A stretch of 64,000 nt of DNA from Elusimicrobiota bacterium (GCA_043819795.1 JBDREN010000049.1:2379-66378); one strand, 5' to 3'. Positions 807 through 10,334 are shown, counted from the stretch's first letter. Notes: a model not told the origin generated them from the sequence alone. Program-made: numbers and translations.

Positions 807-2240
807 ATGAGAGTCGCAGAGAAGACGAAGTCCGCGCAGGAGGTCTGGGCCAAAGGGTACGGCGTCATCAAGCACGCGCCCGAGACCCAGAGGCGCGTGC
901 GCGCCATGGCCAAGCACTTCAAGGCCACGGGAGACGGGACGCCTCTCTTCGAGATTCTGGCGGCGGCCGACCGGCTCGCGAGCGCGGCCATGTGGCTCAC
1001 GGTGCACGACACCTACGCCAGGAACGTGTACTTGGACGGGCGCAAGCTCGGCCGCGAGGACTTCAAGAAGAGCCCCGAGGGGCACACCGGAGGCTCCCTC
1101 AACATCTGCCCGGCCTACGCGGGCTATCTCGCCGCGAACGCGATCACCGGCCATACCCGGGGCTGGCTCATGGAGCAGGGGCACACGGTCTCGGCGATCG
1201 ACTCCGTGAACCTGCTCGTCGGCAACCTGACGCCGGCCCATGCGGAGCGTTACGACCTGACCAACGAGGGCCTGAGCCGTTTCGTGCGGGACTTCTACTC
1301 CTACCGGCTCAACGACAAGGGCGAGCAGGATTCCCCGCGGGGCAGCCACGTGAACGCCCACACGGCGGGGGGCATCGCCGAAGGCGGGTATCTCGGCTTC
1401 GCCGGCCTGCAGTACGCGCACCTGCCCCTGGCGGGCGAGAGGCTGGTGGCGTTCCTGAGCGACGGCGCCTTCGAGGAGCAGCGCGGCCCGGACTGGGCCC
1501 CGCGATGGTGGCGGCACGCGGACTGCGGCTTGGTCGCGCCCATCATGATCTGCAACGGCAGGCGCATCGACCAGCGCACCACCATGAGCATGTCCGGCGG
1601 CTCGGCCTGGTTCCGCAGGCATCTGGAGCTCAACAACTTCGATCCCATCGTGATCGACGGAAGGGACCCGGCGGCCTTCGCCTGGGCGATCTGGGAGACG
1701 GAGAGAAGGCTCGAGTCCGCTCCCCGGAAATATCCCGTGAGGCTTCCCTACGCGATCGCGGAGACCGTCAAGGGATACGGCTTCCCCGGGCAGGGGACGA
1801 ACGCGGCCCACGGCCTGCCTATAGGCGGCAAGGCGGACGACGAGATGATCCGCGTATTCAATGACGGCGCCGGGAAGCTGCACGTGCCCGCGCAAGAGCT
1901 CAAGGAGGCGGCGGCGAGGTTCCAGCGGCACAAGGACCGGCCCAAGGAGCGGGACCACGCCATGGCGGCGCGGGACGTGAAACTCAAGAGGACGGTCGAG
2001 CCCCCCTGGCTGCGAGTGGACGAGAAGCACATTCCCATGACGATGATCGACTACATGTTCGTCGAGACCTGCCTGGCGAACAAGCACCTCCGGCCCCGCG
2101 TGGGCAACCCGGACGAGCTCCGCTCCAACCGGATGGAGCGCACCTTGGATATCCTCAAGCACCGGGTGACGCTTCCGGAGCGGGGAATGGCGGAGGCGCT
2201 CGACGGGAAGCTGTCTCCGCACGAGGTGATCCTCCGATGA
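807..2240 (+). CDS. Phosphoketolase-like protein, short form (N-terminal TPP-binding part only; divergent motifs, possibly a truncated gene)
   Basis: 477-aa ORF with XFP N-terminal-like blocks (PEGHTGGSLN, SHVNAHTAGGIAEGGYLGF, FLSDGAFEE, VGNPDELRSNRM). It ends where the middle domain of ~800-aa phosphoketolases would start. Its stop overlaps the next start (ATGA 2237-2240). Confidence 0.7.
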   Translation: MRVAEKTKSAQEVWAKGYGVIKHAPETQRRVRAMAKHFKATGDGTPLFEILAAADRLASAAMWLTVHDTYARNVYLDGRKLGREDFKKSPEGHTGGSLNICPAYAGYLAANAITGHTRGWLMEQGHTVSAIDSVNLLVGNLTPAHAERYDLTNEGLSRFVRDFYSYRLNDKGEQDSPRGSHVNAHTAGGIAEGGYLGFAGLQYAHLPLAGERLVAFLSDGAFEEQRGPDWAPRWWRHADCGLVAPIMICNGRRIDQRTTMSMSGGSAWFRRHLELNNFDPIVIDGRDPAAFAWAIWETERRLESAPRKYPVRLPYAIAETVKGYGFPGQGTNAAHGLPIGGKADDEMIRVFNDGAGKLHVPAQELKEAAARFQRHKDRPKERDHAMAARDVKLKRTVEPPWLRVDEKHIPMTMIDYMFVETCLANKHLRPRVGNPDELRSNRMERTLDILKHRVTLPERGMAEALDGKLSPHEVILR

Positions 2241-2815
2241 GCGGCCCGGCATCCGTCGCGAGAAGACTGCTCTTTGTGGGGCTGTTGGCCGCGGTCCTGG
2301 GGCCGCTCGCCGGCTCCGCCCGCGCCGCGGTCTCCCGGGGCATGCACGTGGGCGGCTTCGCCAACGGGGCGAACTGGGGCGTGGGACGCCTCGGCCGCAT
2401 AACGGACACGGGGATCAACTTCGCGCTGCTCTACAGGTATCACATCACCGGAGCGCTCTCCGCGGGAATGGAGGTGCGCCGCATCGACTACGGGGCCACC
2501 GCGGCCTCGGGCACCGAGTCCGACGTGGAGCTGGATTCCTACGCTCTGATCGGCAGGTGGGATGTCCTGCCCAAGTCCGATCTCCGGCCGCATCTGGTCT
2601 GCGGCGTGTCCAGCAACAGGTTCAAGCGGAAGGTCGTCCTCGGCCGCTCCACCTCCGAGTCGTCCTCGTATAAGCCCGGCGGAAGCGTCGCGATCGGCCT
2701 GGACAGGGACTTCGGGAAGGGCTGGACCGTGGGCGGGCAGTTCCGCTACCTGCACGTGGGCTCGGACATCAACGCCCTCGGGCTCCGCCTGGTGATCTCC
2801 TTCAGGTTCGCGTAG
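2237..2815 (+). CDS. Outer-membrane beta-barrel protein (small OmpA/OmpW-like type)
   Basis: Signal peptide RRLLFVGLLAAVLGPLAGSARA, alternating amphipathic strands, aromatic C-terminus LVISFRFA. Confidence 0.65.
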   Translation: MSGPASVARRLLFVGLLAAVLGPLAGSARAAVSRGMHVGGFANGANWGVGRLGRITDTGINFALLYRYHITGALSAGMEVRRIDYGATAASGTESDVELDSYALIGRWDVLPKSDLRPHLVCGVSSNRFKRKVVLGRSTSESSSYKPGGSVAIGLDRDFGKGWTVGGQFRYLHVGSDINALGLRLVISFRFA

Positions 2816-2877
2816 AGAACCGGCCCACTCGCACGCCGTCCGACCGCGCCGACTGGGGAGAATCCGTCAAAACGCCG

Positions 2878-3351
2878 CTAATCCTGGCCGTGGAGGGAAG
2901 ACGACTTGTCGTCGTGCACGCCGCGGCGTAGCGTCTGAAAGAGCCGCTCGAAGTGATGGACGCTGACAAGGACCGTGACCGAAACAAGCGCCATCGCCAG
3001 GGCCAGGCCGAATTCCCGGAACCCGATGGCGCAGCCGATGGCGGCCAGGAGCCACACCACCGCCGCCGAGGTGATCCCCGTGACGAGACCTTGCCTGTGC
3101 ATCATGAGTCCGGCGCCCAGGAACCCGACGCCGGTGGCCACCTGGCCCAGCACCCGTGTCGGGTCCCCCTGACCCATATGGCGCATGCCTATGTCAATGT
3201 AGGTGAGGGTGCCGAGGCAGATGAGGATGCTGGTCCGGATGCCGATCGGCTTGCCGCGCAGCTGCCTCTCGATGCCGATGATCACGCCGCAGGCTATGGC
3301 GGCCAGGATCTGAAGCCAGAAGATGCGATCCGCGAGAACATGTGCGCCCAT
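2878..3351 (-). CDS. MgtC/SapB family membrane protein
   Basis: Internal ATG at 3351 gives MGAHVLADRIFWLQILAAIACGVIIGIERQLRGKPIGIRTSILICLG.., the typical MgtC N-terminal domain. The longer 231-aa ORF only adds an Arg/Gly-rich extension. Confidence 0.8.
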   Translation of the reverse strand: MGAHVLADRIFWLQILAAIACGVIIGIERQLRGKPIGIRTSILICLGTLTYIDIGMRHMGQGDPTRVLGQVATGVGFLGAGLMMHRQGLVTGITSAAVVWLLAAIGCAIGFREFGLALAMALVSVTVLVSVHHFERLFQTLRRGVHDDKSSSLHGQD

Positions 3352-3555
3352 CCCGGGAGTATAACTTACCCATGAACGGCCTGCAAATCGCCGAATCGCC
3401 CCACGCTCCCTTCCTCTCCCCTCACGGAGAGAATTTCGTGCACATCCGCGGCGTTTCGCCGGGCGCGCGCATCTCAGTCCGGGCCAGCTCTCCATCCCGG
3501 CAGCGTAAAAACGGGACGCCGGTGGGGAGAATATGGTTAAATTGATGCCGCTCTC

Positions 3556-5052
3556 ATGCCCGCCGATCCTCAAACGTGGGAATCCCGGAGCCCGTTGCGG
3601 AACTTTCTATTGGAAAGCGTCACGGGGCAGGTCCTGATTTCCCTGACAAGCGGGACCTTCGTGACCGCCTTCGCCGTCAAGCTCGGAGCGTCCAACGCGC
3701 AGGTCGGGATCCTGGCATCCATCGCCGCCCTGTCCCAGCTCGTGCAAATCCCCTCGATCTATCTGATCAACCGCTTGCGGGATCGCAAGATCATCGCCAT
3801 GGCCGGCTTCCTTCTCTCCAAGCTTTCCTGGCTGTTGATCGTCCTGCCCATCTTGTGGGGGGCCCGGTCCGTCCCCATGGGGCGTCTGACCGTCGCCGTG
3901 GCCTTGAGCTCCACCTTCGCGGCGGCGGCGCTCTGCAGCTGGAATTCCTGGCTTCGCGACGTGATCGGGCGCAGCCGCATGGGCGCGTTCTTCGCCAAGC
4001 GGCTGGCCTACAGCAAGGCCGTGGGCATCATCACCGGCCTGTCGGCCGGATTCTTCGTGACGGCTTGGGGGAGCTACTCCCGGGAGACGGTGCTCGCCAG
4101 CTATGCCATCCTCTTCTTGGGCGGCATCCTGTTCGGACTGATGAGCGTGTATTTCGTCTGGACCTCCCCCGAGCCGCCTCAAATCCCGATCGACGTCGGA
4201 TTCCTTTCCTCGATCCTGGAGCCGTTCCGCGACAGGAATTACCGGATGCTCATCATCTTCCTCGCGATGTGGAGCTTTTCGGTCAACCTGGCCGCCCCGT
4301 TCTTCACTGTGTACATGCTCAGGCGGCTGCACTTCACCGTGGCCTTCGTGATGTCCATGTCCGTCTTGAGCAACGTCATGAACCTCATATTCTTCCGGTT
4401 CTGGGGCGCTTTCGCCGACCAGTTCTCCAACAAAGGCGTCCTCGCCGTTTGCGCGCCGCTTTGCATCGTCAGCACCTTGTCTTGGGCTTTCACGACCTTG
4501 CCCGAGCCGCACTTCCTGACCTTGCCGATGGTGATCGCGATACATATAGTGGTGGGCGCGGCCACCGCCGGTGTCATACTGGCGTCGAGCAATATCGGCA
4601 TGAAATTGTCCCCGAAGGGGAAGTCGGCGTCGTTTCTGGCCGCGAGCTCCATCGTAAGCTCCTTGGCGGCCGGCATCGCCCCGGTCATCGGAGGGATGTC
4701 GGCGGACTACTTCGCCAGCCGGGAGCTGTCCCTCCTGCTGACATGGAAGAGTCCGGCGTTGGACCTCGGCTTGCGGGCGATCAGCTTCAGGCACTGGGAC
4801 TTCTTCTTCGCCATCGCGTTCGCGCTCGGACTCTATGCATTGCGGCGCTTGTCCTTGGTCCGGGAGGAGGGGGAGGTGCAGCAGAGGGTCGCCCTCCGGG
4901 AATTCCTCCGGCGCCTGCGCGCGAGAATGCTGGCGTTGACCACGGTCCGCGGGATGCGGCAGTTCATCCTCATGCCCGTGGAATTCCTCCGGGACTTCAC
5001 CGAGGAGGACGATATCCTGCCGCACGCGGAGTCCCGGGAAATCCCACGATGA
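3556..5052 (+). CDS. MFS transporter
   Basis: 498 aa with about 12 hydrophobic segments and an MFS-type basic loop (INRLRDRKIIAMAG). The alternative frame 3576..5075 is Arg/Pro-rich and was rejected. Confidence 0.8.
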   Translation: MPADPQTWESRSPLRNFLLESVTGQVLISLTSGTFVTAFAVKLGASNAQVGILASIAALSQLVQIPSIYLINRLRDRKIIAMAGFLLSKLSWLLIVLPILWGARSVPMGRLTVAVALSSTFAAAALCSWNSWLRDVIGRSRMGAFFAKRLAYSKAVGIITGLSAGFFVTAWGSYSRETVLASYAILFLGGILFGLMSVYFVWTSPEPPQIPIDVGFLSSILEPFRDRNYRMLIIFLAMWSFSVNLAAPFFTVYMLRRLHFTVAFVMSMSVLSNVMNLIFFRFWGAFADQFSNKGVLAVCAPLCIVSTLSWAFTTLPEPHFLTLPMVIAIHIVVGAATAGVILASSNIGMKLSPKGKSASFLAASSIVSSLAAGIAPVIGGMSADYFASRELSLLLTWKSPALDLGLRAISFRHWDFFFAIAFALGLYALRRLSLVREEGEVQQRVALREFLRRLRARMLALTTVRGMRQFILMPVEFLRDFTEEDDILPHAESREIPR

Positions 5053-5071
5053 ACGAAGAGGCGGTATCCTT

Positions 5072-7951
5072 ATGAAGCACACTGCTTGGCTGTCGATCGG
5101 CGCGATGATCCTGTTCGCGGGAGCCGGGTCCGCGGCCCCGTTTCGCCCCCTCGAGCCCAAGGAGGCCGCCGCGCTGATATCGAAGATCCAGGCCAATCCG
5201 CGCGGGCCGTACGAGCGCGTGATGTGGCACTGCCGGGACGGCTCGGTGCTGCCTCCCGCGCCCTATGCCTGCTCCGAGCGCGGCGGCGGCCGGCAATACG
5301 GCGTCCCGAACGCGGACGCGGGGAAGCTGGCTGCGGCCGGGATATACGTCGGCACGGTCTTGGCGTCATTGTCGCCCGAGGATCTGACCGCCGACGGCTA
5401 TTACCGCGCGCGGGCCATTATCGTGGAGAAATTCCTCGAGATCGCGCTGGACGGGTGGGCCTTGCGTTCGGCGAAGTCGTATCGGGGCTTCAGGCAGGCC
5501 GAAGACGAGGAGAAAGCGGCCGAAACCCTTCTGGCGGTATTGGCCCGCGAGGACGGCTGGGCCCTGCGCCATCGCTACCTCGCCGTCCGGCTCGCGCGGT
5601 CCATGCCGGGCGGAGCGGACGCGAGCCTGGCCGATGAGATCCGCGCCCTCGCCGCCAAGATAGCGGACAAGGACCCCGCGTTCCAGGGCATGCGCTCCAA
5701 GATCCACTCCATCATGGAGCCCGGAGACGCCAGCGCGGTGCTGAGCTATTCGGAAACGGCGCCGGCGGCCGCGCCGGCGGCGAGGGAGCTGGCGGAGAAA
5801 ATCCGGGCCTATTACGACCCGCGCCAGTTGCGCGACCGCCTCCGGAGGATCAGACGCTTCTTGCCGGACCGGGGGATCGCAGGCCTGATCGACGAGTTGG
5901 TTTCCGCGGAAGCCGATGTCTTCGAGCGGATACGGATCGTCGAGGAATTGCTGACCCTGGCGGACCGAGCGCTCGGCCAGGCCGCGTCCCGCACCGACGG
6001 GACCCGGCTCCACCTGATCCAACTCATGAGCGCCTTGGAGGATGTCCTGGCCTCGACGACCGCGCAGCTAAGAGGCGCGAGCATGTTCAGGCTTCAGGCG
6101 GTGGAGACCGCGCAGAGGCTGTCGCGGTGCGCCCGGGCGCTCGGGCTTCTCTCGCCGCGCGAGCTGGAGGCCGCCCGGCCGGTCATAGGGCGCATGCGGA
6201 CCGGAGGGGGAGCGGATTACGTCGCCGGGCATCGCCAGCTGATTCGGACCGCCGAATGGGCTCGTGCCCTGGTGCTGTCGGAGCTGGGCATCCCCATCGG
6301 CCGGTACGTCCTGGCCGAAGGCCGGGCGGCGCAGGTCGTGGACGAGCTGCTTCGCAGCGGGGTGATGCTGCCGCTGGCGGCGATCATCGACCGCATCGGC
6401 GCCGACCTGTACTCCCTGCGGGGAGGGAACCATCGCGTCTACGGCGTGAAGGGGGCCGCCGTGCGGGGCGAGAACCCGGGCCTGGCGATCGGGCCGCTTC
6501 GCGTCCGAGAGCATTCCCAATCGCCCAAAGGACTCAAGCGCAACGAGGTGGCGCTCCTATATGAGCTCCCTTCGGAGCTGCCTCCGGTCGCGGGGATCAT
6601 CACCGTGGGCGCGTCCGGCAGCCTATCGCATGTCGCCCTGCTGGTGCGGAATCTGGGGATTCCCTTGGTTTCCGTGGACGGGCGGACCGCCGACGCGATC
6701 AAGGCCTGGGAAGGGCGGGAGGTGGCCGTGGGCGTGAGCGCGGGCGGCCGCGTGGTCTTGGGAGAGCTTATCGCGTTCGGGGAGGAAGACCGGCGGCTGT
6801 TGGGGCGATCGTCGGCCAAGGACCAGCCTTTCCTGAGGATCCCGCGCGAGTCGCTCAACCTCCGCTTCGCGGAGGCCCTCGCGCTGGGCGAGGTGTCGGA
6901 AAAGGATTCCGGGGCGAGGGTCGGGCCCAAGGCCGCGGAGCTGGCCAGGCTCAAGCGTCTGTTCCCGGATCGCGTGAGCGACGCGGCGGTGCTGCCCTTC
7001 GGGCTGTTCGTCGAGCATGTCGACCGGCCGGGGCCGGACGGGGCTCCGTCCCCCCTGGCGAGGCTGCGGTGGGCCTATGCCCAGGCGGCCACAAAAGGCG
7101 CCGAGGAGCGGGAGCGGTTCATGCTGGAAGAGCTCGCCAGGTTCCGCAAGCGGATACTGGAGCTCCCCTTTGCGGATGGGTTCGAGCGGAAGATCGACGA
7201 GGCGCTCGCGCGCGTCGGCCGGCCGGGCGCATTCGGGGTCTTCGTCCGCAGCGACACCAACGTGGAGGACCTCAAGGAGTTCACCGGCGCCGGCCTGAAC
7301 CTGACGGTACCCAACGTCGTAGCGCGCGATTCGGTCTTCTCCGCGATCCGTTCGGTCTGGGCGTCCCCCTATTCCGAACGCTCCTACGCCTGGCGGCAGC
7401 GCATACTCCTCGATCCGGAGCATGTCTATCCGTCGGTCATTCTCCACAAGACCGTTCCCTCCGAAATATCGGGGGTCCTGGTCACGATGGACATGGAGAC
7501 GGGGGATCCGGGCCAGGTCACGGTGAGCGCGAGCGAGGGCGTGGCCGCGGTGGTGGACAGCGGCCTTCCGGAGACGATCGTCGTGCCCAGACAGGGAGGC
7601 GCCCCTCGGTGGCTCTCCTCGTCCCGGACCGCGACCAGGAAGGCGGTCCCCCCGTTGCCGAAAGAGGGGCTCGAGGTGCTCCCCGCCTCCGGCGGCGAGC
7701 CTCTGCTGGGACCGGCAAGGATCAAGGACATCCTCCATGTCGTTTCGCGTCTGGAGACGATCGAACGGGCCGACCCGGCCGTCCCCTGGGATGTGGAGTT
7801 CGGGTTCCTGGGGGATCGGATGTTCCTCATGCAGCTGCGGCCGCTCAAGGTGTCCCGCTCGGCCGTCCGCCAGCCCTATCTGCGGAAGCTCGATCGGGAG
7901 GTCTCGTCGAGGATCGGCGAGGTCGACATGAGCCGGCCGTTGGCAAGGTGA
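5072..7951 (+). CDS. Exported PEP-utilising / PPDK_N (ATP-grasp dikinase-like) protein with permuted domain order
   Basis: N-terminal signal-like MKHTAWLSIGAMILFAGAGSAAP. Swivel phosphohistidine signature GASGSLSHVALLVRNLGIPLV (His codon 6629-6631). Downstream PPDK_N-like blocks VGPKAAELARL, FVRSDTNVEDLKEFTGAGLNLTVPNV, VWASPYSERSYAWR, SGVLVTMD, PWDVEFGF..LMQLRPL. Confidence 0.8.
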   Translation: MKHTAWLSIGAMILFAGAGSAAPFRPLEPKEAAALISKIQANPRGPYERVMWHCRDGSVLPPAPYACSERGGGRQYGVPNADAGKLAAAGIYVGTVLASLSPEDLTADGYYRARAIIVEKFLEIALDGWALRSAKSYRGFRQAEDEEKAAETLLAVLAREDGWALRHRYLAVRLARSMPGGADASLADEIRALAAKIADKDPAFQGMRSKIHSIMEPGDASAVLSYSETAPAAAPAARELAEKIRAYYDPRQLRDRLRRIRRFLPDRGIAGLIDELVSAEADVFERIRIVEELLTLADRALGQAASRTDGTRLHLIQLMSALEDVLASTTAQLRGASMFRLQAVETAQRLSRCARALGLLSPRELEAARPVIGRMRTGGGADYVAGHRQLIRTAEWARALVLSELGIPIGRYVLAEGRAAQVVDELLRSGVMLPLAAIIDRIGADLYSLRGGNHRVYGVKGAAVRGENPGLAIGPLRVREHSQSPKGLKRNEVALLYELPSELPPVAGIITVGASGSLSHVALLVRNLGIPLVSVDGRTADAIKAWEGREVAVGVSAGGRVVLGELIAFGEEDRRLLGRSSAKDQPFLRIPRESLNLRFAEALALGEVSEKDSGARVGPKAAELARLKRLFPDRVSDAAVLPFGLFVEHVDRPGPDGAPSPLARLRWAYAQAATKGAEERERFMLEELARFRKRILELPFADGFERKIDEALARVGRPGAFGVFVRSDTNVEDLKEFTGAGLNLTVPNVVARDSVFSAIRSVWASPYSERSYAWRQRILLDPEHVYPSVILHKTVPSEISGVLVTMDMETGDPGQVTVSASEGVAAVVDSGLPETIVVPRQGGAPRWLSSSRTATRKAVPPLPKEGLEVLPASGGEPLLGPARIKDILHVVSRLETIERADPAVPWDVEFGFLGDRMFLMQLRPLKVSRSAVRQPYLRKLDREVSSRIGEVDMSRPLAR

Positions 7952-7958
7952 ACGGGCG

Positions 7959-9269
7959 ATGAGAGCAAGGGCGCCGAGACTTTTGACGCGGCTGGGGCTG
8001 GCTCTGGGCATGGCCTGCCTACGGCAGGGCGCGGCGGCGTACCCGACGGATTCCGGGGAGCGGACCGGCATCCGCCGGTTGTCCTGGCAGGCGCAGGTCG
8101 ACCGGGGCGAGACGCGGGGAGTCAAGAACCCGCCTGGAGGGCGCTGGGGGGAGGATCGGATACGCCTGCGGCTGCTGAGCTCGGGCGCGCGATTCCGGCT
8201 GTCCGAGGACAGCCCCAAGGACCCGGTCCTTCAGAAGGGCCTGACGGACATACTCAAACGCGGGGGTTGGGAGTCGTACGGGGCGGCGATCGTGGACATC
8301 TCCGACCCGGAAGCCCCGAGATACGCGGCCGTCAACGAGCTCAAGCGCCAGATACCGGGCAGCACGGCCAAGGTGCTGGCGGCCGCGGGCATGCTGGAGG
8401 CGCTGCGGTCCCTTTATCCCGACGACATAGCCGCCCGGGAGAGGGCTTTGCGGACGATTCGGGTTCCGGCGGACTCCTGGGCCATGCCCAACTCTCATGA
8501 TGTCCCGATCCTGACGGCCGAGGGGATGTCGATGCGCCCCATCCGCCCCGGCGACGTCTTCTCACTGTGGGAGTGGCTGGACCACGCACTCTCCCCGAGC
8601 TCCAACGCCGCGGGGACCATGGTGTGGCGCGAGGCGGCGCTGCTGCGCTTGTTGGGGCGGGAATATCCCCCGGCGGCTTGGGACGGAAAGCTCTTCGCAC
8701 GGTGGAGCAGGCAGGATTTCACCAAGGCCGCGTTCGATGCGGTCGACGCTCCGCAGGCCGGGGCCGGGCTCGATACGGACCTGTTGCGGATACGTACATT
8801 CTTCACGGCGGGCGCTTCCCGCCACATCCTTTCGTCGAGCAGCGTCGGGACTCCCTTGGGCCTGGCGCAATGGCTGCTCAGCATGGAGCAGGGCAGGATC
8901 GTGGACCCTTGGTCCAGCCTCGAGCTCAAGCGCCTCCTCTACGTCACGCGCAGGCGCATCCGGTCCGCCGCGGCCCCGGAGCTGGCGGAATGCGCCGTAT
9001 ACTTCAAGAGCGGAAGTCTCTACAAGTGCAGACCCGAGGAGGGCTTCGTCTGCAAGAAGTATATGGGCAACGATCAGAACCTGCTCAACTCGCTGGCCTT
9101 GGTCGAAGTCCCGTCCGCGGAGCCCGATGAGGGCGGTCGACACCGCATTTCAGGGGCGTATATCGTGGCCGTGACGTCGAACGTGCTCAAGCGGAACTCG
9201 GCCGACGATCACGCGCGCCTCGCGGGCGCCATCCATCGCTTGCTGACGGGCCGGCAAAAAAAGAAATGA
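7959..9269 (+). CDS. Exported serine hydrolase, class-A beta-lactamase/PBP-like fold
   Basis: Signal-like N-terminus. SxxK (PGSTAKVLAAAGMLEAL), SxN (SPSSNAAG) and KxG (YFKSGSLY) motifs in the expected order. Confidence 0.7.
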   Translation: MRARAPRLLTRLGLALGMACLRQGAAAYPTDSGERTGIRRLSWQAQVDRGETRGVKNPPGGRWGEDRIRLRLLSSGARFRLSEDSPKDPVLQKGLTDILKRGGWESYGAAIVDISDPEAPRYAAVNELKRQIPGSTAKVLAAAGMLEALRSLYPDDIAARERALRTIRVPADSWAMPNSHDVPILTAEGMSMRPIRPGDVFSLWEWLDHALSPSSNAAGTMVWREAALLRLLGREYPPAAWDGKLFARWSRQDFTKAAFDAVDAPQAGAGLDTDLLRIRTFFTAGASRHILSSSSVGTPLGLAQWLLSMEQGRIVDPWSSLELKRLLYVTRRRIRSAAAPELAECAVYFKSGSLYKCRPEEGFVCKKYMGNDQNLLNSLALVEVPSAEPDEGGRHRISGAYIVAVTSNVLKRNSADDHARLAGAIHRLLTGRQKKK

Positions 9270-10267
9270 CCAAAAATGGCGCCGTGCTCGCCGTGTCCGC
9301 CTTTCTGCTGAGCGTCTTCCCGCATGCCTCGCCGGCGGGAGAGGAAGCCCCGCCGCCCGTCGAGCTGGACTCCAACGGCAATCCCATCGGAGAGGCGGCC
9401 CTCAACTGCAGGGCGAACTATCCTCTTTTGCGCAAGAACGCGGACCTCATGGCCGCGCTCGCGGCGGCGCTGGAGAAGGCCGGATACAGCGAGGCGATAC
9501 GGAAAAGGAAGATGGCGGTTTCCATCGTCGATCTGACGGCCAAGAACCGCGTCTATTACGCGGGCATCAACGGCAACCACATGATGTACGCCGCCAGCCT
9601 CCCGAAGATAGCCGCGCTTCTGGCGTACGTCGAGGCGGTCAAGGACGGCCGGCTGCCCTGGAATGACGATGTCCGGAGGCGGCTCTCGCGCATGATCAAC
9701 GCATCGAGCAACAAGGACGCCACGTGGGCCATCGAGCAGGTGGGCCTCGATTACATCGAAAAGGTCCTGCGCAAGCAGGGCCGGTGTTTCTACGGCGACC
9801 GGTATGGAGGGCAATGGCTGGGCAAGCCGTACCGGAAGGAAAGCAAGGCGAAGAGGGACCCTTTGCGGGGATTGTCTCACGGCGCCACGACCCGCCAGAC
9901 CGCGAGATGGTTCGTTCTGCTGGACAAGGGTTTGCTCGCGGATCCGGTGGGGAGCAGGCGGATGATGGGGGTGATGAGTCCCCCGCAAAAGCGCCACAAA
10001 TTCGTCAAAGGGCTGAAGCCTCTCGGGGACGTCCGTATTCTGGCCAGAAAAAGCGGGACTTGGCGGACCTACCACTCCGACAGCATCCTGGTGGAGCATG
10101 AGAGCGGCGTCCGCTATGTGGCCGTCGGGATGCTGGACCACCCAAGGGGCGGGAGAATCCTCGTCGATCTGATAAGGATCGTCGACCGGCTGATGGTGGG
10201 AGGGAAACACCGCGTTCCTCGGGCGGAGCCCGGCGGGGGCGCCGGATCGCCCGAGATCCCGCGGTGA
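9266..10267 (+). CDS. Exported class-A beta-lactamase-like serine hydrolase (paralogue of preceding gene)
   Basis: ATGA overlap with the upstream gene (9266-9269). Signal peptide AVLAVSAFLLSVFPHASPA. SxxK (AASLPKIAALL), SxN (NASSNKDAT), KxG (ARKSGTW). Confidence 0.75.
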   Translation: MTKNGAVLAVSAFLLSVFPHASPAGEEAPPPVELDSNGNPIGEAALNCRANYPLLRKNADLMAALAAALEKAGYSEAIRKRKMAVSIVDLTAKNRVYYAGINGNHMMYAASLPKIAALLAYVEAVKDGRLPWNDDVRRRLSRMINASSNKDATWAIEQVGLDYIEKVLRKQGRCFYGDRYGGQWLGKPYRKESKAKRDPLRGLSHGATTRQTARWFVLLDKGLLADPVGSRRMMGVMSPPQKRHKFVKGLKPLGDVRILARKSGTWRTYHSDSILVEHESGVRYVAVGMLDHPRGGRILVDLIRIVDRLMVGGKHRVPRAEPGGGAGSPEIPR

Positions 10268-10334
10268 GGGTCCGTCCCCGTCCGGACCGGTAGCTTTTCA
10301 GCTCGACCGGCGACGATCCTTCATCGGAGCTCGG

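Follow-up and report, generated by a model that had tools for sequence, protein, structure and literature searches.

We describe here a four-gene unit in a 64,000-nucleotide stretch of Elusimicrobiota DNA (GCA_043819795.1 JBDREN010000049.1:2379-66378; this whole stretch is hereafter called the window), whose second gene, an open reading frame (ORF) at positions 5072-7951, encodes a relative of the phosphoenolpyruvate (PEP)-utilising enzymes. On balance, its product is probably a periplasmic His-swivel dikinase of diderm bacteria, fed with nucleotide by a dedicated inner-membrane transporter and acting with two PBP-A-like enzymes. The identity and order of the domains, the conservation of the catalytic residues, an export signal found throughout the family and the linkage of the four components are directly supported here; all the evidence for the reading as a whole is computational. 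The dikinase gene and the segments it encodes are the following.

5072..7951, + strand: predicted exported His-swivel dikinase-like protein of 959 aa with an ATG start (ORF and domain matches)
5072..5137, + strand: Sec-type signal-peptide-like leader, residues 1-22 (sequence and family-wide leader)
5141..6457, + strand: novel N-terminal candidate acceptor domain, residues 24-462 (small beta unit, C54/C67, ~20 helices)
6458..6811, + strand: phosphohistidine swivel (PEP-utilizers mobile) domain, H520 codon at 6629-6631 (Pfam, profile, conservation)
6884..7891, + strand: PPDK_N ATP-grasp nucleotide-binding domain, residues ~605-940 (K620, R726, E909, Q921, R923)

Behind its leader, the protein consists of a ~440-aa all-helical domain, a swivel domain carrying H520 and a PPDK_N ATP-grasp domain. 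An initial annotation of the window had described the ORF, its leader, a swivel ahead of the ATP-grasp and the neighbouring genes and had regarded the swivel-then-ATP-grasp succession as a permutation relative to PEP synthase (PEPS), PPDK and rifampicin phosphotransferase (RPH). Pfam, NCBIfam and profile alignment agree that this permutation is real. Pfam places PPDK_N at residues 685-934 (E 6e-25) and the swivel at residues 503-534, the latter with a match (E 1e-3) that lies under the gathering cut-off, and residues 605-930 align with residues 6-315 of the RPH and PEP synthase models of NCBIfam. When a family profile built from 24 homologues was compared with PEP synthase 8a8e, two pieces matched in swapped order, namely the ATP-grasp (profile 680-944 to PEPS 102-376, 1.6e-29) and the swivel (profile 467-547 to PEPS 384-467, 4.5e-5). 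With the swivel at ~463-580 and the ATP-grasp at ~605-940, the latter is not N-terminal to the former. No PEP/pyruvate TIM barrel (PEP-utilizers_C) was matched by Pfam or NCBIfam, and the protein ends after the ATP-grasp.

What had been called a clear phosphohistidine swivel signature, GSLSHVALLVRNLGIP, holds H520 together with the catalytic (S/T)-H. This histidine is kept in 123 of the 126 aligned rows of ~125 members, at most 50% identical to one another, on which conservation was measured. The ATP-grasp residues K620, R726, E909, Q921 and R923, which we take, from the PEPS alignment, to be the equivalents of the PPDK/PEPS residues, are kept in 122-124 rows, as are R138, Q142, R191, H212 and W396 of the N-terminal domain (N-domain). 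Conservation of this kind in swivel, ATP-grasp and N-domain indicates an enzyme under strong purifying selection rather than a decayed domain. A PPDK_N ATP-grasp, a mobile phosphohistidine domain and the catalytic and Mg-binding ATP-grasp residues, all characteristic of the His-swivel (PEP-utilising) dikinase superfamily, are present, and the gene product appears catalytically competent as a three-domain His-swivel dikinase.

The dikinase family is large, widespread and uncharacterised. A word-indexed search recovered only 24 full-length relatives, all of them labelled 'PEP/pyruvate-binding domain-containing protein' in metagenome-assembled genomes (MAGs); an exhaustive search with an N-domain profile raised this to 750 cluster representatives at E <= 1e-3, 321 of them at E <= 1e-30. 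Almost all relatives measure 950-1000 aa, with the N-domain extending from residues ~20-60 to ~480, and at least 590 species-representative genomes encode a member. The hosts belong to Elusimicrobiota, Myxococcota, Bdellovibrionota, Acidobacteriota, Gemmatimonadota, Gamma-, Beta- and Zetaproteobacteria, Nitrospirota and Spirochaetota; all the lineages named in the record titles are diderm, and the list is mostly made up of free-living autotrophs or heterotrophs. Mariprofundus ferrooxydans PV-1, M. erugo, two Guyparkeria strains and a Halieaceae isolate are cultured hosts. Two relatives, P0017 (L004 8001-11084) and P0020 (L002 8001-11039), carry a low-complexity linker of 30-60 residues, rich in Ala, Gly, Pro and Ser, between signal peptide and N-domain.

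The ~480 aa that the initial annotation could not assign still resemble nothing in the libraries consulted, since hidden Markov model searches of residues ~24-462 gave no Pfam or NCBIfam match and no informative fold-library match. Modelled alone, the N-domain reaches a pLDDT of 89.9 and a pTM of 0.88 and shows a small beta unit, in which C54 and C67 (codons at 5231 and 5270) are located, together with ~20 helices. Its near-invariant residues are R138, Q142, E144, R191, R208, H212, D219, R340, W396, R428 and D445, and the many invariant Arg, Lys and His residues suggest an anionic ligand. Fold searches revealed no similarity to the RPH-type helical substrate-binding domain, and the central domain of glucan,water dikinase (GWD) gave no match to the N-domain in the fold libraries, where the presence of that structure is unconfirmed. 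The N-domain appears to be new and may represent a new acceptor fold.

Export of the dikinase by the Sec pathway to the periplasm of diderm bacteria is strongly supported by a comparison of predicted features of the protein and of its relatives. The window protein begins with MKHTAWLSIGAMILFAGAGSAAP, which comprises a K-containing n-region, a hydrophobic core of ~15 aa and small-residue -3/-1 cleavage sites after AGA (before G), AGS (before A) and GSA (before A); AF2 gives residues 1-21 a pLDDT below 50. The family was surveyed with a heuristic leader criterion (at least 30 residues with a hydrophobic 12-mer of mean Kyte-Doolittle value >= 1.6) on 118 full-length members carrying the N-domain motif and clustered at 50% identity. 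A leader was found in 109 of them, and the orthologues lacking a hydrophobic N-terminus that would have spoken against export are thus few. By this heuristic, the n, h and c regions of a Sec signal peptide are recognised and kept in orthologues: the h-regions are short, many leaders end in canonical AXA sites, and K or R occurs in the n-region of 83 of the 109. According to the positive-inside rule, K/R before a hydrophobic core orients a protein N-in, C-out, and this orientation follows for those 83 leaders. Five leaderless exceptions begin at an internal Met that the family conserves, and their starts were probably miscalled; P0012, which seemed to have no leader, gains one when read from a GTG further upstream. 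Of 126 rows, 123 retain the C54/C67 Cys pair, in proteins of low total Cys content, and the window itself encodes diderm markers, an outer-membrane beta-barrel protein and an AsmA-like protein. Together with the exported-looking partner proteins described below and the diderm hosts, the leader survey, P0012 and the Cys pair uphold the export signal proposed in the initial annotation.

Since an ATP-grasp enzyme normally needs cytoplasmic ATP, and since some homologue leaders lack a charged n-region, the protein could instead be cytoplasmic or keep its catalytic domains on the cytoplasmic side, the hydrophobic N-terminus being a mis-called start or an N-out anchor. We regard this as very improbable. 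The leaders, with their short h-regions, AXA sites and charges ahead of the core, argue against it, as do the invariant Cys pair and the exported look of both partners, and linkage to a nucleotide transporter would be pointless for a cytoplasmic enzyme. A mis-called start was rejected on specific grounds: the conserved Met (alignment position 39) is Ile in the window protein and cannot serve as a start, which makes the annotated start with its leader a requirement, and the leader is family-wide. Export through Tat, of a protein already folded or pre-charged, was likewise rejected. Only 4 of 113 leaders (P0037, P0094, P0118 and P0153; e.g. TRRGFG, SRRPLK) are even loosely Tat-like and the rest look Sec-type; this rarity implies that the protein crosses unfolded and cannot bring nucleotide or phosphohistidine along.

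The dikinase gene is preceded by a transporter gene and followed by two genes for serine enzymes of the beta-lactamase fold, as listed here.

3556..5052, + strand: MFS_1-type transporter gene, first gene of the operon (Pfam MFS_1, E 5.5e-17)
7959..9269, + strand: long PBP-A/class-A-beta-lactamase-fold serine enzyme, 436 aa (hhalign to the short paralogue, motifs)
9266..10267, + strand: short PBP-A/class-A-beta-lactamase-fold serine enzyme, 333 aa (Pfam Beta-lactamase2, PBP-A profile match)
10269..10288, + strand: terminator-like hairpin directly 3' of the last gene of the unit (consensus scan alone)

The MFS stop codon (5052) and the dikinase start, which is preceded by a Shine-Dalgarno-like motif, GAAGAGG, are separated by 19 nt, and 7 nt separate the end of the dikinase ORF from the long beta-lactamase-fold gene; these values correct the 20 and 8 nt given initially. 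The long and short beta-lactamase-fold genes (7959-9269 and 9266-10267) share an ATGA overlap. The unit is bounded upstream by a divergent MgtC gene and, beyond the hairpin, by a convergent gene of the DnaJ family, and the gene order conserved in related loci bears out the four-gene operon that had been proposed.

The two downstream genes are recurrent companions of the dikinase. Where the sequence of a related locus extends far enough downstream (72 loci), a beta-lactamase-fold gene starts at the dikinase stop codon or overlaps it in 65 cases, and a second such gene lies next to the first in 41 of 61 loci; the association with beta-lactamase-fold genes seen in the window thus recurs across genomes. 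The long and short partners are paralogues (hhalign probability 99.9%, E 7e-34). The short one matches Pfam Beta-lactamase2 (PF13354) with 50 bits for a cut-off of 22, and the nearest solved relative of its profile is PBP-A Tll2115 (2j7v, 2e-8), a DD-peptidase with the class A beta-lactamase fold; the long one is recognised as a member of this fold only through its short paralogue. Both possess the SxxK, SxN and K(T/S)G motifs of penicillin-recognising serine enzymes within a Beta-lactamase2 fold, at S135-TA-K138, S214-S-N216 and K350-S-G352 in the long partner and at S111-LP-K114, S147-S-N149 and K262-S-G264 in the short one. These SxxK/SxN/KSG motifs are 98-100% conserved in the long partner (65 loci) and 95-100% in the short partner (41 loci). 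Both proteins have signal-peptide-like N-termini and the long one has a conserved Cys pair of its own (C357/C365), in keeping with the initial description of two exported beta-lactamase-fold proteins. Neither reaches any beta-lactamase or antimicrobial resistance (AMR) model of NCBIfam.

Two further features of the long partner may be recorded. A near-invariant YP(L/T)DG..TGIRRL opens its mature form, immediately behind the predicted cleavage site, and the protein has an N-terminal extension of ~100 aa that is found neither in the short paralogue nor in PBP-A. In one locus (L080, 6821-11101, + strand), a 1427-aa stop-to-stop frame appears to join the dikinase and the long beta-lactamase-fold gene. 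We rejected this as a fusion on which a Rosetta-stone argument could be built: the beta-lactamase-fold part has a Met and a signal peptide of its own (MMRPGIPILLAGLLAASQPALS, followed after the cleavage site by YPLDG), the stretch before it is unlike a dikinase C-terminus, and the long frame, which comes from a long-read MAG, is probably due to a frameshift or to faulty assembly.

All-against-all clustering of the neighbourhood ORFs brought out a fourth recurrent family, present in 38 loci. Nineteen of 20 of its members exceed the gathering score of the Pfam TLC model (best E 7e-18), its profile matches the solved ADP,ATP carriers 9j3n (8e-30) and 9j3j (3e-23), and the TLC signature regions are kept, e.g. 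YSINRTSKELLYLPIEPEVKYKAKAAID; the linked transporter of these relatives is thus a genuine NTT/TLC ATP/ADP-translocase homologue. The remaining large neighbour clusters were shadow ORFs over the dikinase and NTT genes or the cyclic nucleotide (cNMP)-binding part of long NTTs, and no wall-synthesis or secretion-system genes recurred among the clustered module neighbours. In 36 of 84 unique loci the NTT gene adjoins the module, mostly less than 200 nt away and in at least two arrangements, either divergent and directly upstream of the dikinase gene or after the second beta-lactamase-fold gene. It is adjacent in the clade nearest to the window (L004, L008, L010, L015). In a reverse search of metagenome contigs seeded with the NTT profile, a dikinase or beta-lactamase-fold gene was found on 31 of the 37 contigs with at least 1.5 kb upstream. 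In seven loci (L137, L140, L120, L122, L123, L135, L136) the NTT gene immediately precedes the dikinase gene and is co-directional with it; the order in L137 (NTT 1674-3086, dikinase 3114-6134, long beta-lactamase-fold gene 6130-7659) is that of the window operon with the NTT in the place of the MFS gene. Such tight coupling, recovered from either gene as the starting point and in several arrangements, points to NTT and module being dedicated partners. The initial annotation had stated that an exported ATP-grasp phosphotransferase has no obvious phosphodonor; the NTT/TLC gene linked to the module in relatives offers a candidate answer.

The long NTT forms combine TLC with HEAT and, in some cases, cNMP_binding domains and are of the NTT-HEAT(-cNBD) type. 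Fusions of TLC, HEAT and a cyclic-nucleotide-binding domain measuring ~930-1040 aa are frequent, for instance at L004 13562-16630 (- strand), L008 12098-15187 (- strand) and L019 3890-6700 (- strand). Should the long form supply the dikinase with nucleotide, cAMP or cGMP may gate that flux. A complete bacterial-type module, with dikinase, two beta-lactamase-fold genes and NTT, also occurs on a contig labelled as a Nitrosopumilus sp. MAG (L075, CAXQPB010000182.1), for which mis-binning seems likely because Major et al. found no archaeal NTTs (PMC5381601).

An exported dikinase need not depend on ATP supplied by the cell that made it. It could draw on environmental ATP, act after release in vesicles or within another cell, or run in the reverse, phosphatase direction, and the NTT could serve import, as in the salvage of AMP or extracellular ATP. 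We hold this to be improbable, and slightly more so than any of the substrate-level readings weighed below. In its favour, every characterised NTT works as an importer (PMC5381601), measurements in E. coli have shown ATP outside the cell and in the periplasm without any translocase (PMC7432876), half of the loci have no adjacent NTT and the window offers a generic MFS transporter only. It accounts poorly for the tight coupling of NTT and module just described, the cNMP-regulated fusions suggest that a costly metabolite is moved under control, secretion-system genes are not among the recurrent neighbours and the hosts are mostly free-living.

The transporter gene of the window itself requires separate consideration. 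The same MFS family adjoins the module in L006, an 80% relative, and also in L003, a distant locus with 35% dikinase identity; in L003 the MFS gene is co-directional with the short beta-lactamase-fold gene. The idea that the window MFS protein is a disguised NTT found no support: Pfam returned no TLC match even at E up to 10 and MFS_1 only, hhalign against the NTT profile gave a probability of 0.5% and no specific similarity, and no NCBIfam or PDB relative was found. Functional equivalence of MFS and NTT is accordingly put forward as a hypothesis, because it rests on shared position and not on homology. The MFS family (P0175-P0294) is highly conserved (42-48% identity) and extends from Elusimicrobiota to methanogens (Methanoculleus, Methanofollis, Methanoperedens); it has a conserved charged C-terminal tail, and none of its relatives is characterised or solved.

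According to the mechanism that we propose, an inner-membrane transporter would deliver a nucleoside triphosphate, most likely ATP, to the periplasm, as suggested by gene linkage. This transporter would be the NTT/TLC homologue in many relatives, often in the cNMP-regulated NTT-HEAT-cNBD form, and the MFS_1 protein occupying the same slot in the window. By homology and residue conservation, the C-terminal ATP-grasp would bind the nucleotide and H520 would take the beta-phosphate, the gamma-phosphate passing to water or Pi as in PEPS, PPDK, RPH and GWD, with AMP and Pi as products. The swivel would then carry the phosphate to the N-domain, where an invariant cluster of Arg, His, Asp and Glu residues may bind a probably anionic envelope or periplasmic acceptor. 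The two PBP-A-like acyl-serine enzymes, whose place in the operon is conserved, would share its substrate or pathway with the dikinase and might form a heterodimer. A fuller proposal, which we advance tentatively and consider somewhat less than an even prospect, is that many free-living diderms run a dedicated periplasmic ATP economy, with MFS replacing NTT in some lineages, that energises dikinase phosphorylation of an envelope component in concert with the PBP-A-like enzymes.

Several observations weigh against an ATP-fed periplasmic dikinase. Characterised NTTs import ATP, and export is assumed here from the expected gradient; a dikinase yields AMP and Pi, whereas classical NTTs swap ATP for ADP (+Pi); and periplasmic phosphatases and nucleotidases would compete for the ATP (PMC7432876). 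About half of the related loci (Bryobacterales, Mariprofundus, some Myxococcota) are without an adjacent NTT. The window transporter (3556-5052) is a generic MFS_1 protein of a broad family that also occurs in archaea and, as stated above, bears no specific similarity to the NTT profile; no TLC-like ORF was found anywhere in the 64-kb window. To these points must be added the absence of Pfam, NCBIfam and informative fold-library matches for residues ~24-462, and the quarter or so of leaders without n-region K/R, which are atypical and may reflect miscalled starts.

For the acceptor, an envelope polymer and a small molecule come into consideration as alternatives. A first substrate-level version of the preferred reading would assign the module to the remodelling of peptidoglycan or another envelope polymer: the dikinase would phosphorylate the polymer, by analogy with GWD, whose phosphorylation of insoluble starch opens it to attack by hydrolases, and the PBP-A-like enzymes would process its peptide part. 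The domain order shared with GWD, the proximity of the partners to PBP-A Tll2115 with the SxxK/SxN/KSG motifs of penicillin-recognising enzymes, the many invariant basic residues of the N-domain, which suit an anionic ligand, and the restriction of the family to diderm lineages are all consistent with such a role. It is weakened by the Pfam and NCBIfam scans of the dikinase, which revealed no carbohydrate-binding domain (CBM), LysM, SPOR or peptidoglycan-binding domain, and by neighbourhoods in which wall-synthesis genes are not recurrent; moreover, we know of no phosphorylated peptidoglycan of such kind in diderms. We consider this specific version unlikely.

A second possibility, to which we give a lower likelihood still, is the periplasmic inactivation of drugs or xenobiotics, a substrate-level rival in which the dikinase would phosphorylate a hydroxyl-bearing small molecule, the beta-lactamase-fold enzymes would cut a lactam, ester or amide, and the MFS protein would move the compound or its product. 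The analogy is with RPH, which acts on rifampin, and with phenolic phosphate synthetase/HpeI, which act on phenols. Yet the N-domain is not similar to the RPH substrate domain, the partners reach none of the NCBIfam beta-lactamase/AMR models and have a DD-peptidase-like PBP-A as nearest solved relative, and linkage to an NTT is not a natural consequence of a resistance role. In addition, the very broad chromosomal distribution of the module, from chemolithoautotrophs to soil phyla, and its stable synteny look more like housekeeping than accessory resistance. A role as an anti-phage defence system was rejected, as PADLOC gave no hit.

Some features of the surrounding sequence deserve mention. 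The longest ORFs of the divergent MgtC (2878-3573, - strand) and MFS (3556-5052, + strand) genes overlap by 18 nt at their 5' ends, and the NCBI call of the MFS protein has 480 aa against 498 aa for the longest ORF; because of this overlap and this shorter call, the true starts probably lie further in and the shared promoter is very short. At 807-2240 (+ strand), a 477-aa ORF has weak partial matches to XFP_N and XFP phosphoketolase (E 1e-10 and 4e-4) and could be a divergent or truncated thiamine-diphosphate enzyme; an antisense ORF of almost the same length (768-2252) overlaps it.

Textbook physiology regards the periplasm as free of ATP and accounts for processes in the envelope through chemistry that needs no ATP or through energy coupling across the membrane. 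An exported enzyme with a conserved active site requiring a nucleoside triphosphate, genetically coupled to translocases across several phyla, suggests that some bacteria may deliberately supply ATP to the periplasm. The locus thereby connects two puzzles, the periplasmic ATP supply and the role of NTTs in free-living bacteria. Concerning the first, the route of ATP from cytosol to periplasm has been described as unclear, Gram-negatives not being known to encode ATP/ADP translocase homologues (PMC7432876). Concerning the second, a 2017 survey found NTT homologues in many free-living bacteria without being able to give them a role, and described the NTT-HEAT(-cNBD) fusions there as widespread and uncharacterised (Major et al., PMC5381601). 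We found no report of an exported dikinase or of an association between NTT and dikinase in the literature searched, of which the coverage was incomplete, so that absence is not proof. If the proposal is true, the bacterial periplasm would have in this module its first ATP-driven phosphorylation system, and the enigmatic NTTs of free-living bacteria would gain a function. Its confirmation would also add a new envelope modification, dikinase phosphorylation, define a new acceptor domain fold, provide a function for a remote branch of the penicillin-binding/beta-lactamase superfamily and offer a testable route for regulated ATP export. Cultured hosts are available, namely Guyparkeria, Mariprofundus ferrooxydans PV-1 and the Halieaceae isolate.

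Each component of the module can be compared with a known system. Lig E shows that ATP-dependent enzymes with a periplasmic destination exist (PMC10799422). Like the window dikinase, it is a signal-peptide-bearing enzyme of diderms that needs ATP outside the cytoplasm; its fold and reaction are unrelated, and no dedicated nucleotide transporter has been reported for it. The module-linked transporter resembles the NTT/TLC transporters (TC 2.A.12) in its match to the TLC model, to the solved ADP,ATP carriers and to the signature motifs. The characterised ones, however, import host ATP into obligate intracellular bacteria or plastids, whereas the hosts here are free-living and the direction we infer is export to the periplasm. 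The partners share with PBP-A (Tll2115, 2j7v) and class A beta-lactamases the Beta-lactamase2 fold and the SxxK, SxN and K(S/T)G motifs; they differ in being very remote and in forming a paralogous pair strictly linked to the dikinase gene, the long form having an extra N-terminal region and a Cys pair.

With PEP synthase and PPDK, the window dikinase has in common the PPDK_N ATP-grasp, the PEP-utilizers swivel, the catalytic S-H motif and the ATP-grasp residues; it differs by the missing PEP-utilizers_C TIM barrel, the swapped order and the export signal. It is also unlike LmRPH (5hv1/5hv6), BsPPS and HpeI (9goj), which are cytoplasmic and arranged as ATP-grasp, acceptor and swivel. The closest parallel is with the plant enzymes alpha-glucan,water dikinase (GWD) and phosphoglucan,water dikinase (PWD). 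Potato GWD (StGWD1) is ordered CBM45_1, CBM45_2, an all-helical central domain, a His domain (H992) and an ATP-binding domain (1069-1387) (PMC13553574). Because GWD shares the succession of acceptor domain, swivel and ATP-grasp, a His domain placed before the ATP-grasp is not unprecedented, and this layout had earlier been described only in plastidial starch enzymes. The initial annotation had noted that its case would fall if the architecture already belonged to a characterised family: the catalytic order does occur in plant GWD, but the family itself is uncharacterised, bacterial, predicted to be exported and without CBM. The likeness to GWD/PWD extends to a helical domain, a phosphohistidine domain and a C-terminal PPDK-type ATP-binding domain, to the lack of a PEP/pyruvate TIM barrel in either and, presumably, to the chemistry, ATP + acceptor + H2O -> AMP + phospho-acceptor + Pi via His~P. 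GWD is a plant and algal, plastidial protein of ~1400 aa with N-terminal CBM45, whereas the window dikinase is bacterial and apparently Sec-exported; in place of the starch-binding CBM45 or CBM20 of GWD/PWD, its N-terminus consists of a signal peptide and a small disulfide-type beta unit with the Cys pair, and it has PBP-A-like and transporter partners. What is new in this known kind of enzyme is therefore the candidate acceptor fold and the predicted cellular location, the permutation being GWD-like rather than unique.

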